A stretch of 64,000 nt of DNA, from the NCBI RefSeq assembly GCF_055900595.2, contig NZ_CM148325.1; one strand, given 5' to 3'. Under the pieces are notes generated by a model. That model was not told the DNA's origin, searched no databases, and saw nothing but the letters and a program-made list of their open reading frames with translations. Every line of letters begins with the position of its first letter. The first letter of the stretch is position 1. The position numbers and the translations under genes were made by a program. Of this stretch, positions 31,137-33,794 are shown piece after piece.

Positions 31137-31370
31137 CATTGGGATTTATGCCGTATTCCTGAAGTTCCTCATCATTGGAATGGATTTTCGGGCGAGAAAA
31201 GGATTTTATATGGATACTCTACTCATCATTTCTTCTTCTCATCATCAACAATTCACGTCTCTCTTCCGCGTTTAATAACGGATTATGATGTGCAAAAAAA
31301 ATATCTTTCGTTTCAGTTACCTGTAATTAGATACAGAGAGAGATTTCGGCAATACATGGAGTAATACAGG
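31137..31370 (+). promoter_or_regulatory. pgaA long 5-prime leader with multiple GGA motifs (CsrA-binding type), one overlapping the SD/start
   Basis: GGA triplets in A/U-rich context (TGGAATGGATT, AAGGATTTT, ATGGATACT, CGGATTA, CATGGAGTA, CAGGATGTATTC); by established knowledge the pgaA leader is a CsrA target. Confidence 0.6.
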
Positions 31371-33794
31371 ATGTATTCAAGTAGCAGAAAAAGGTGTCCG
31401 AAAACCAAATGGGCTTTGAAAATTCTTACTGCCGCATTTTTAGCAGCGAGTCCCGCGGCGAAGAGTGCTGTTAATAATGCCTATGATGCATTGATTATCG
31501 AAGCTCGCAAGGGAAATACTCAGCCAGCTTTGTTATGGTTTGCACAAAAATCAGCACTCAGTAATAACCAAATTGCTGACTGGTTACAGATTGCCTTATG
31601 GGCCGGGCAAGATAAACAGGTTATTACCGTTTACAACCGCTACCGTCATCAGCAATTACCAGCGCGTGGTTATGCAGCTGTCGCCGTCGCTTATCGTAAC
31701 CTGCAACAATGGCAAAACTCGCTTACACTGTGGCAAAAGGCACTCTCTCTGGAGTCGCAAAATAAGGATTATCAACGGGGACAAATTTTAACCCTGGCAG
31801 ATGCGGGTCACTATGATTCTGCGCTGGTTAAACTTAAGCAGCTTAACTCTGGAGCACCGGACAAAGCTAATTTACTCGCAGAAGCCTATATCTATAAACT
31901 GGCGGGGCGGCATGAGGATGAATTACGGGCGATGACAGGGTCATTACCTGAAAATGCCTTAACGCAACAATATCCCACAGAATACGTGCAGGCATTACGG
32001 AATAATCAACTTGCTGCCGCGATTGACGATGCCAATTTAACGCCAGATATTCGCGCTGATATTCATGCCGAACTGGTCAGACTGTCGTTTATGCCTACGC
32101 GCAGTGAAAGTGAACGTTATGCCATTGCCGATCGCGCCCTCGCCCAATACGCTGCATTAGAAATTCTGTGGCATGATAACCCTGACCGCACTGCCCAGTA
32201 CCAGCGTATTCAGATTGATCATCTTGGCGCGTTATTAACTCGCGATCGTTATAAAGACGTTATTTCTCACTATCAGCGTTTAAAAAAGACGGGGCAAATT
32301 ATTCCGCCCTGGGCGCAATATTGGGTTGCGTCGGCTTATCTCAAAGAACATCAGCCAAAAAAAGCACAGTCAATAATGACAGAGCTCTTTTATCACAAGG
32401 AGACCATTGCCCCGGATTTATCCGATGAAGAACTTGCGGATCTCTTTTACAGCCACCTGGAGAGTGAAAATTATCCCGGCGCGCTAACTGTCACCCAACA
32501 TACCATTAATACTTCGCCGCCTTTCCTTCGGTTAATGGGCACGCCTACGAGCATCCCGAATGATACCTGGTTACAGGGGCATTCGTTTCTCTCAACCGTA
32601 GCAAAATATAGTAATGATCTTCCTCAGGCTGAAATGACAGCCAGAGAGCTTGCTTATAACGCACCAGGAAATCAGGGACTGCGCATTGATTACGCGAGTG
32701 TGTTACAAGCCCGCGGTTGGCCTCGTGCGGCAGAAAATGAATTAAAAAAAGCAGAAGTGATCGAGCCACGTAATATTAATCTGGAGGTTGAACAAGCCTG
32801 GACAGCATTAACGTTACAAGAACGGCAGCAGGCAGCGGTCTTAACGCACGATGTTGTCGAACGTGAACCGCAAGATCCCGGCGTTGTACGTTTAAAACGT
32901 GCGGTTGATGTACATAATCTTGCAGAGCTTCGTATCGCTGGTTCAACAGGAATTGATGCCGAAGGTCCGGATAGTGGCAAACATGATGTCGACTTAACCA
33001 CCATCGTTTATTCACCACCGCTGAATGATAACTGGCGCGGTTTTGCTGGATTCGGTTATGCCGATGGACAATTTAGCGAAGGAAAAGGGATTATTCGCGA
33101 CTGGCTTGCGGGTGTTGAGTGGCGGTCACGTAATATCTGGCTTGAGGCGGAGTACACCGAACGCTTTTTCAATCATGAGCATAAACCCGGCGCGCGCCTG
33201 TCTGGCTGGTATGATTTTAATGATAACTGGCGTATTGGTTCGCAACTGGAACGCCTCTCTCACCGCGTTCCATTACGGGCAATGAAAAATGGTGTTACAG
33301 GCAACAGTGCACAGGCTTATGTTCGCTGGTATCAAAATGAGCGGCGTAAGTACGGTGTCTCTTGGGCTTTCACTGATTTTTCTGACAGTAATCAGCGTCA
33401 TGAAGTCTCACTTGAGGGTCAGGAACGCATCTGGTCTTCACCATATTTGATTGTCGATTTCCTCCCCAATCTGTATTACGAACAAAATACAGAACACGAC
33501 ACCCCATACTACAACCCTATAAAAATGTTCGATATTGTTCCGGCATTTGAGGCAAGTCATTTGTTATGGCGAAGCTATGAAAATAGCTGGGAGCAAATCT
33601 TCAGCGCAGGTGTTGGTGCCTCCTGGCAAAAACATTATGGCACGGATGTCGTCACCCAACTCGGCTACGGGCAACGCATTAGCTGGAATAACGTGATTGA
33701 TGCTGGCGCAACGCTACGCTGGGAAAAACGACCTTATGACGGTGACAGAGAACACAACTTATACGTTGAATTCGATATGACATTCAGATTTTAA
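31371..33794 (+). CDS. pgaA: PGA (poly-beta-1,6-GlcNAc) outer-membrane export porin with TPR domain
   Basis: 807-aa ORF MYSSSRKRCPKTKWALKILTAAFLAASPAAKSA; recognised as PgaA. Confidence 0.95.
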   Translation: MYSSSRKRCPKTKWALKILTAAFLAASPAAKSAVNNAYDALIIEARKGNTQPALLWFAQKSALSNNQIADWLQIALWAGQDKQVITVYNRYRHQQLPARGYAAVAVAYRNLQQWQNSLTLWQKALSLESQNKDYQRGQILTLADAGHYDSALVKLKQLNSGAPDKANLLAEAYIYKLAGRHEDELRAMTGSLPENALTQQYPTEYVQALRNNQLAAAIDDANLTPDIRADIHAELVRLSFMPTRSESERYAIADRALAQYAALEILWHDNPDRTAQYQRIQIDHLGALLTRDRYKDVISHYQRLKKTGQIIPPWAQYWVASAYLKEHQPKKAQSIMTELFYHKETIAPDLSDEELADLFYSHLESENYPGALTVTQHTINTSPPFLRLMGTPTSIPNDTWLQGHSFLSTVAKYSNDLPQAEMTARELAYNAPGNQGLRIDYASVLQARGWPRAAENELKKAEVIEPRNINLEVEQAWTALTLQERQQAAVLTHDVVEREPQDPGVVRLKRAVDVHNLAELRIAGSTGIDAEGPDSGKHDVDLTTIVYSPPLNDNWRGFAGFGYADGQFSEGKGIIRDWLAGVEWRSRNIWLEAEYTERFFNHEHKPGARLSGWYDFNDNWRIGSQLERLSHRVPLRAMKNGVTGNSAQAYVRWYQNERRKYGVSWAFTDFSDSNQRHEVSLEGQERIWSSPYLIVDFLPNLYYEQNTEHDTPYYNPIKMFDIVPAFEASHLLWRSYENSWEQIFSAGVGASWQKHYGTDVVTQLGYGQRISWNNVIDAGATLRWEKRPYDGDREHNLYVEFDMTFRF

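Follow-up and report, generated by a model that had tools for sequence, protein, structure and literature searches.

The region at positions 31137-31376 of the window, i.e., the whole 64,000-nt stretch that was analysed (64 kb), was identified by alignment as the orthologue of the Escherichia coli K-12 pgaABCD leader. The product of pgaABCD is poly-beta-1,6-N-acetylglucosamine (PGA), a biofilm adhesin. We are highly confident that this region forms the untranslated 5' leader of pgaABCD mRNA in an E. coli strain and would be repressed by CsrA at two steps, and standard Csr control of PGA synthesis is very probably retained in the strain. The pgaA leader is the reference example of multi-site, multi-mechanism CsrA control, involving translation, mRNA stability and Rho-dependent termination, and it ties carbon and stress physiology to biofilm formation. 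The role of its GGA motifs as CsrA-binding sites is already textbook knowledge, well studied in E. coli, and the intact leader found here adds no new biology. The evidence obtained from the present allele comprises orthology, conservation of every element, motif density, rut composition and local folds; CsrA binding, Rho termination and the transcription start were taken from K-12 experiments, from which we infer them for this allele. The genes and promoter elements of the locus are as follows.

29414..30781, - strand: dgcT (ycdT), divergent diguanylate cyclase gene, with its start at 30781
31073..31091, no strand assigned: inverted repeat TCCGATATCATGCATCGGA from the stem-loop scan, spanning -61..-43 from the inferred pgaA start
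31123..31128, + strand: TATTTT, probable -10 hexamer of the pgaA promoter, read from the sequence, 5 nt before the inferred +1
31134..31370, + strand: pgaABCD 5' untranslated leader, 237 nt here and 234 nt in K-12, with +1 placed by homology
31371..33794, + strand: pgaA, first gene of pgaABCD, 807 codons (807 aa), with A31371 as the first base of the ORF

The locus and its synteny are shared with K-12 (Wang et al. 2005 Mol Microbiol 56:1648; Figueroa-Bossi et al. 2014, PMC4052769), with pgaA, pgaB and pgaC downstream of the leader and dgcT divergent upstream. The end-to-end alignment with the 234-nt leader of E. coli K-12 MG1655 shows six substitutions and one 3-nt insertion in an A-run (97% identity). 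The pgaA gene shares 97.7% nucleotide identity with that of K-12, and the encoded PgaA differs from K-12 PgaA by 19 amino acids. The dgcT-pgaA intergenic region spans 30782-31370 (589 bp), which agrees with the ~590 bp given in an earlier note on this DNA. In the dgcT mRNA, AAAGGGAUC is located at -32 and AUGGAA spans the start codon, and ycdT (dgcT) appears in published lists as a single-site CsrA target (PMC4066749, PMC6028588).

The pgaA 5' UTR of K-12 is 234 nt long, as PMC4052769 cites from Wang et al. 2005. The start coordinate of the earlier note, 31137, corresponds to the ATG minus this K-12 length and needs correction, because the leader of this strain contains three extra A's; the homologous +1 would be 31134 if the K-12 start is conserved. 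The published 234-nt 5' UTR puts the start upstream of all eight GGA motifs described below, so the refuting condition named in the earlier note, a start downstream of most of them, does not overturn the CsrA reading. The promoter contains no good -35 element, as expected for an activator-dependent promoter, and the TATTTT hexamer was not called by a generic promoter scan. The inverted repeat TCCGATATCATGCATCGGA is kept in K-12 except for 1 nt and is a candidate activator site, perhaps for NhaR.

GGA motifs and predicted CsrA sites along the leader

Eight GGA motifs were counted directly on the + strand of 31137-31376 (31142, 31177, 31182, 31201, 31212, 31280, 31358 and 31369), where the earlier note had claimed at least six, and the AU-rich context it described corresponds to 64% A+T. 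In the K-12 leader, six CsrA-binding sites and repression by CsrA were shown experimentally by Wang et al. 2005 (as reported in PMC4052769 and PMC7652899). Of the eight GGAs, five match these mapped sites; the remaining mapped site is of the AGAGA type. The leader elements are listed below.

31135..31152, + strand: 5'-terminal hairpin GGCAU-UGGGAUUU-AUGCC, predicted by folding, with GGA +9 (31142-31144) in the loop
31177..31184, + strand: GGAAUGGA, containing GGAs +44 and +49, unmapped and predicted to be paired
31194..31214, + strand: left arm of the anti-terminator hairpin (+61..+81), with CsrA sites 1 and 2 (AAGGA at 31199-31203, AUGGA at 31210-31214)
31210..31275, + strand: leader ORF of 21 codons (MDTLLIISSSHHQQFTSLFRV and stop), read from the sequence
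31215..31240, + strand: segment of the +61..+107 hairpin with lineage changes C82U and G88A, seen in the folds, with its role from PMC4052769
31215..31274, + strand: C-rich, G-poor rut tract (+82..+141), 20 C and 3 G in 60 nt
31278..31282, + strand: ACGGA (+145..+149), putative CsrA site 3
31294..31301, + strand: A8 homopolymer, A5 in K-12 and A6-A9 in other haplotypes, source of the 3-nt length difference
31335..31343, + strand: AGAGAGAGA, putative GGA-less CsrA site 4
31356..31361, + strand: AUGGAG, Shine-Dalgarno sequence and CsrA site 5, with 9-nt spacing to the AUG and its role from PMC4052769 and PMC7652899
31364..31376, + strand: AUACA-GGA-UGUAU hairpin, CsrA site 6, with the pgaA AUG (31371-31373) inside and its role from PMC4052769

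The pattern of multi-site CsrA repression proposed in the earlier note is supported by the 97% identity to K-12, the conservation of all GGAs and the six sites documented in K-12, but each GGA should not be equated with a CsrA site. The GGAs at +9, +44 and +49 fall outside the mapped set, because the mapped set begins with two sites inside +61..+81. This left arm is identical to K-12, where the delta61-81 deletion takes out the two 5'-proximal CsrA sites (PMC4052769). ACGGA probably represents mapped site 3, since no other GGA occurs from the hairpin up to the Shine-Dalgarno region; local folding predicts a hairpin whose loop takes in part of the motif. Table 2 of PMC4066749 names AGAGA among secondary CsrA sites, with Wang 2005 as the source, and a direct count found no other GGA-like element between +150 and +224 of the leader. 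The last GGA, said earlier to overlap the Shine-Dalgarno sequence as well as the ATG, does span the ATG in CAGGATG (31367-31373), but the Shine-Dalgarno sequence belongs to the penultimate GGA and the two sites are separate. The start-codon hairpin presents its GGA in the loop, with P(unpaired) of 0.66-0.96 in local folds, in a SELEX-like form that matches 8 of the 12 positions of the RUACARGGAUGU consensus.

Presentation of GGA in predicted loops is clear at +9 and +236 and partial at +147, and the other five motifs are predicted to be paired. The pairing at +68 and +79 is part of the published remodelling mechanism (PMC4052769). Folding of the whole leader is no better than that of shuffled sequences (z = 0.04), and only the local elements are meaningful. 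The GGA at +9 has the classical GGA-in-loop form, with P(unpaired) of 0.93-0.97, and the stem that carries it has one C-G to U-G change in a single haplotype, which keeps the pair. GGAAUGGA is invariant across all sampled haplotypes, and none of the intact E. coli leaders sampled varies in the GGAs at +9, +44 and +49. These motifs could be extra functional CsrA contacts, e.g., in 5'-end loading before the anti-terminator hairpin emerges or in coupling to 5'-end-dependent decay, a tentative idea that we consider rather unlikely. The small gain of the present analysis is that the eight GGAs are now matched against mapped sites, leaving three conserved GGAs over.

The predicted Rho attenuator and the proposed mechanism

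In K-12, the +61..+107 hairpin, with CsrA sites 1 and 2 in its left arm, hides the Rho-loading (rut) site, the published rut bubble covers +50..+130, and CsrA- and Rho-dependent termination in the leader was shown both in vitro and in vivo (PMC4052769). The corresponding segment here (31194-31240) folds into an imperfect hairpin with the same lower stem as in K-12 (GAGAA/UUCUC, AGGA/UUCU), two CsrA sites in the 5' arm and a rut half-site in the 3' arm. Its ensemble energy is -7.4 kcal/mol, compared to -7.8 kcal/mol for K-12. The best 78-nt window of the rut region has a C-G value of 15, within the top 1.2% of the 64 kb.

By analogy with K-12, CsrA dimers bound to the GGA-centred leader sites would repress pgaABCD at two steps. 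During transcription of the leader, CsrA on the two left-arm sites would melt the +61..+107 hairpin. The C-rich rut tract, lying partly in the right arm and partly past it, would then be exposed, and Rho could load and terminate transcription before pgaA. On transcripts escaping termination, CsrA at AUGGAG and at the start-codon hairpin would block 30S binding and is also expected to destabilise the pgaA mRNA. The earlier note named only the translation block and omitted CsrA-induced Rho-dependent termination through unfolding of +61..+107 (PMC4052769). The translation efficiency of pgaA is changed in a csrA mutant (PMC5694010).

Motif statistics and alternative readings

At the GGA rate of the whole window, ~2.8 motifs are expected per 240 nt, compared to the eight observed, and a count of eight or more is reached by just 0.86% of 240-nt windows slid along either strand. 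Mononucleotide shuffles of the leader gave P(>=8 GGA) = 0.0002. The enrichment is genuine, though moderate when dinucleotide content is taken into account: dinucleotide-preserving shuffles had a mean of 4.76 GGAs and P(>=8) of only 0.029. This moderate value, and the 17 other clusters of at least eight GGAs within the 64 kb (several in coding sequence), would fit a compositional accident of a purine/U-rich intergenic region, without regulatory role. The consensus scan suggested earlier (WCANGGANGW, at most one mismatch) was uninformative and showed no enrichment, with 135 matches in 64 kb vs. 128.6 expected and the Shine-Dalgarno site as the sole match inside the leader. However, six A(N)GGA motifs (+49, +68, +79, +147, +225 and +236) are present in the leader vs. 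a mean of 1.06 per 243 nt, which ranks in the top 0.26% of windows. The criteria of PMC4066749 for a CsrA target call for at least three primary sites, with pairs 10-60 nt apart; this spacing is seen for +68/+79 and +225/+236, each pair 11 nt apart, and A(N)GGA also covers the Shine-Dalgarno/start region (-30..+5), as AUGGAG at -15..-10 and CAGGAUG across the AUG. Moreover, the K-12 orthologue has mapped CsrA sites whose mutation alters expression (PMC4052769, PMC7652899), and for K-12 an accidental origin is already refuted by these published footprints and mutants. We regard such an accident as extremely improbable here.

Two further readings were considered. The leader might be primarily a base-pairing target of the activating sRNA McaS, with the GGAs incidental: a target has been proposed in the right arm of the hairpin (PMC4052769), and overexpression of McaS raises pgaA expression and biofilm formation (PMC7652899). 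Activation by McaS, however, survives deletion of the proposed target (delta82-107) and is lost in the deltaL delta-csrA background (PMC4052769), and McaS itself, which contains GGA motifs and is bound by CsrA at high affinity, is proposed to titrate CsrA (PMC7652899), which leaves this reading very improbable, though slightly less so than an accident. The 21-codon leader ORF might instead mediate translation-coupled attenuation; the GGA at +79 would then belong to its initiation region. Its AUG lies at +77, it covers the rut tract and ends at the UAA at +140..+142, and the lineage changes at +82 and +88 both fall on synonymous third positions. But the ORF is not preceded by any Shine-Dalgarno-like sequence, and it carries two non-synonymous changes, T3N and S17C, in B2-type haplotypes. 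The ORF is probably not functional, and we give attenuation through its translation as little credence as an accidental GGA cluster. Repression of pgaABCD by CsrA at two steps remains the preferred reading.

Comparison with known systems and natural variation

The glgC and cstA leaders, classical cases of translational repression by CsrA, resemble the pgaA leader in having several A(N)GGA sites, one of them over the Shine-Dalgarno sequence, where CsrA competes with the 30S subunit (PMC7652899, PMC4066749). The pgaA leader differs from them in having more sites (six mapped) and a Rho-dependent attenuation step, which is unreported for glgC and cstA. CsrB/CsrC and McaS also contain dense GGA arrays, several in hairpin loops, that are bound by CsrA; these are stand-alone non-coding RNAs that titrate CsrA, whereas the pgaA leader is a cis-acting part of a regulated mRNA target. 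No Rfam family was found over 31134-31376. Distant pga operons (K. pneumoniae chromosome, Enterobacter/E. coli plasmids, Plesiomonas) are of the same operon type, with PgaA ~34-38% identical. The final 145 nt of the K. pneumoniae pga upstream region contain five GGAs, one of which is in an AUGGAA that spans the annotated start, whereas the Enterobacter-type plasmid pga locus, truncated by ISKpn26, has only two in 300 nt. A GGA-dense upstream region is therefore not universal to pga loci. The distant loci of the plasmid collection were rejected as a comparative test, since their upstream regions cannot be aligned with the leader and their start sites are not established.

The leader comparison covers E. 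coli only. K-12, six further RefSeq haplotypes and 61 intact metagenome contigs representing 16 haplotypes share all eight GGAs and the AGAGAGAGA tract without change. This invariance carries little statistical weight at the divergence sampled, since with ~19 variable positions per 243 nt the chance of sparing all 24 GGA bases is estimated at ~0.14. A contig scan for other Escherichia leaders with the 18-mer AAAAGGATTTTATATGGA returned 95 chance matches in AT-rich genomes and none in Escherichia, because the pattern is too AT-rich.

Divergence from K-12 is 2.6% in the leader; it rises to 4.8% at third codon positions of pgaA and, in the promoter-distal half of the intergenic region, to 8.0%. 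Leader conservation was rejected as evidence of selection, since the contrast between 2.6% and 4.8% is, by our estimate, not significant. The 8.0% value, far above that of the leader, goes together with a step up to 10.8% in dgcT, a pattern that resembles a recombination boundary.

The leader differs from that of K-12 in length (A8 vs. A5) and in six substitutions, two of which (C82U and G88A) sit at the top of the hairpin. At positions 82 and 88, the C..G haplotype occurs in 3219 genomes and 56 contigs and the U..A haplotype in 377 genomes and five contigs. A 91-nt query gave no exact match to either intermediate haplotype, with ~567 genomes that have other differences in this stretch left unassigned. 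A compensatory base pair formed by the two changes was rejected as evidence of structure: the pair is worth less than 1 kcal/mol, its U-A version is not predicted to form, all U..A haplotypes belong to one lineage and represent a single event, and both changes are synonymous in the leader ORF. One metagenome contig has an IS1 insertion in the leader. Natural variants such as C82U/G88A, the A-run length and the IS1 insertion can be used as ready-made attenuator alleles.

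Locus identity, leader start and promoter

The ORF at 31371-33794 (807 codons), whose first base is the A of CAGGATG, is pgaA; pgaB and pgaC lie downstream of it, and dgcT (ycdT) is the divergent neighbour. The dgcT start lies at 30781 on the minus strand, leaving an intergenic region of 589 bp, in line with the ~590-bp shared control region described in the earlier note. From the position homologous to the K-12 transcription start to the pgaA AUG, six substitutions and an A-run expanded by 3 nt set the leader (the 5' UTR of the pgaABCD mRNA) apart from that of E. coli K-12 MG1655. 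Because the K-12 pgaA 5' UTR is 234 nt long (Wang et al., 2005, as cited in PMC4052769), this expansion would give a leader of 237 nt, and homology with K-12 points to 31134 as +1. The start proposed previously, 31137, was simply the ATG minus 234 and would be off by 3 nt. A plausible candidate −10 element (TATTTT, 31123-31128) is present and a good −35 element is absent, which fits an NhaR-activated promoter; activation of the pgaA promoter by NhaR has been reported (PMC7652899). One upstream element may be a candidate site for this activator:

31073-31091, inverted repeat TCCGAT-ATCATGC-ATCGGA with perfect arms, −61 to −43 of the putative pgaA start

The same repeat was called a terminator-like stem on the minus strand by the scan.

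GGA content and probable CsrA sites of the leader

Eight GGA triplets are present on the plus strand within 31137-31376 (31142, 31177, 31182, 31201, 31212, 31280, 31358 and 31369), bearing out the earlier count of at least six, and the last one does span the start codon in CAGGATG (31367-31373). All eight occupy the same positions in the K-12 MG1655 leader. The rate over the whole window predicts 2.8 GGAs per 240 nt, and only 0.86% of sliding windows contain at least eight, yet 17 other 8-GGA stretches occur in the 64 kb. Dinucleotide-preserving shuffles of the leader gave a mean of 4.76 (P = 0.029). The leader contains six motifs of the more specific A(N)GGA form versus a mean of 1.06 (top 0.26%). 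The strict 10-mer scan suggested earlier (WCANGGANGW) had no discriminating power, with 135 matches versus 128.6 expected. The GGA enrichment is genuine but moderate. Six A(N)GGA per 243 nt are also reached by four other plus-strand stretches (within 11566-14328 and 22434-22694), which lie in msyB, antisense to opgH and in the early csgD coding sequence and are probably codon-composition effects.

Six CsrA-binding sites have been mapped in the K-12 pgaA leader (Wang et al., 2005, as cited in PMC4052769). An imperfect hairpin spans +61 to +107; its left arm (+61 to +81) holds the two 5'-proximal sites, and its right arm makes up the 5' half of a rut site (PMC4052769). CsrA binding opens this hairpin and leads to Rho termination in the leader, as demonstrated both in vitro and in chromosomal mutants (PMC4052769). 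Ribosome profiling also places pgaA among genes with CsrA-dependent translation efficiency (PMC5694010). The corresponding elements in the window are as follows.

31199-31203, plus strand, site 1, AAGGA, hairpin left arm
31210-31214, plus strand, site 2, AUGGA, hairpin left arm
31194-31240, plus strand, hairpin; lower stem same as in K-12, ensemble energy −7.4 versus −7.8 kcal/mol in K-12
+82 to +141, rut tract, 20 C and 3 G in 60 nt; C-G excess in the top 1.2% of the window
31278-31282, plus strand, putative site 3, ACGGA, with no other GGA lying between hairpin and Shine-Dalgarno sequence
31335-31343, plus strand, putative site 4, AGAGAGAGA, of the AGAGA type, a secondary CsrA site (Wang et al., 2005, as cited in PMC4066749)
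31356-31361, plus strand, site 5, AUGGAG, Shine-Dalgarno sequence
31364-31376, plus strand, site 6, GGA in the loop of AUACA-GGA-UGUAU, AUG in the 3' arm

The site 6 hairpin closely resembles the SELEX consensus hairpin. Mapped CsrA sites account for just five of the eight GGAs; those at +9, +44 and +49 are outside the mapped set, upstream of the two sites that the literature places furthest upstream. The remaining mapped site would be of the AGAGA type, with no match among the eight GGAs. A 5'-terminal hairpin (31135-31152) is predicted to present the +9 GGA in its loop (P(unpaired) ~0.95), and these three conserved 5'-proximal GGAs could conceivably bind CsrA too.

Because every functional element is near identical to K-12, we transfer the published dual mechanism to this allele: CsrA would induce Rho-dependent attenuation in the leader and would also repress pgaA translation. 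This is very probably the best explanation for the leader. The multi-site CsrA repression of PGA synthesis proposed earlier is supported by the mapped K-12 leader, although Rho-dependent termination had been missed. CsrA control of the pgaA leader is already known. Published experiments on the K-12 allele contradict both a chance origin of the GGA cluster and a primary role of the leader in base-pairing with McaS, a small RNA that activates pgaA. Leader-peptide attenuation through the 21-codon ORF within the leader (31210-31275) is likewise contradicted. This ORF is probably non-functional: mutation of its AUG has no effect in K-12 (PMC4052769), and it has acquired two non-synonymous changes in B2 strains.

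Natural variation of the leader and other pga loci

All eight GGAs are kept in seven RefSeq haplotypes and 61 intact metagenome contigs (16 haplotypes), which is weak evidence, as ~19 positions vary in 243 nt and such invariance has a chance probability of roughly 0.14 by our own estimate. The lineage of this strain carries C82U and G88A (+82 and +88; window 31215 and 31221). Exact matches to a 91-nt query among 4163 E. coli records comprised 3219 with C..G, 377 with U..A and none with either intermediate; ~567 records carry other differences within the query stretch. Nissle, one of these ~567 that was examined, has C..G and two other SNPs. The U..A pair was also found in five metagenome contigs, both changes always together. 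C82 pairs with G88 in the K-12 minimum-energy fold. The two changes were rejected as covariation support: the pair is worth <1 kcal/mol, U-A is not predicted to form, every U..A haplotype belongs to a single lineage, and neither change alters the peptide of the leader ORF. Their joint occurrence could reflect a compensatory pair atop the anti-terminator hairpin, synonymous leader-ORF changes or simple linkage, and the energetics argue against compensation. The A-run at 31294-31301 varies from A5 to A9 among E. coli, shifting the spacing of the ACGGA and AGAGA sites by at most 4 nt.

Two metagenome contigs carry rearranged leaders. In L161 (OQIG01005404), an IS1 end (GGTAATGACTCCAACTTATTGATAG...) is inserted at ~+212, right after ACAGAGAGAG, so that the Shine-Dalgarno sequence and AUG are cut off from the promoter and attenuator. 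The L117 leader is replaced upstream of +42.

An AT-rich 18-mer scan for leaders of other Escherichia species returned chance matches only, and the upstream regions of distant pga operons (PgaA ~34-38% identical) were not alignable with the leader. The K. pneumoniae chromosomal pga locus has five GGAs in the last 145 nt, one across the annotated start, and the locus on an Enterobacter-type plasmid shows two per 300 nt; therefore, GGA density upstream of pgaA is not universal. These distant loci are no proper test of the leader feature.

Genomic neighbourhood

The dgcT mRNA (30782-30830, minus strand) contains AAAGGGAUC ~32 nt before its start and AUGGAA across the start codon, a layout that mirrors the pgaA arrangement. 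The gene is reportedly a single-site CsrA target (PMC4066749). Divergence from K-12 is 10.8% in dgcT, 8.0% in the promoter-distal intergenic region, 2.6% in the leader, 2.3% in pgaA and 1.1% in pgaB, and this sharp step (29414-31133) resembles a recombination boundary close to the promoter of pgaA. Among 4284 E. coli records, just 16 match 30700-31500 at ≥99%.

In this strain, ghrA is disrupted by a 1329-bp IS10 (27138-28466) with a 9-bp target duplication, identified from an Rfam RNA-OUT match (27183-27252, minus strand), a 402-aa transposase ORF (27245-28453) and the K-12 alignment. The IS3D-ymdE-ycdU block, 3.3 kb between dgcT and serX in K-12, is missing here (29410-29457), and a tRNA-Ser (29223-29307) directly adjoins dgcT. 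Rfam matches elsewhere in the window were:

37609-37802, plus strand, Ysr251, full-length, 190 bits, antisense to the phoH 3' end
22194-22285, plus strand, ES056, coinciding with the csgD 5' UTR
38945-39122, minus strand, two naRNA4 (REP-type) elements between phoH and efeB
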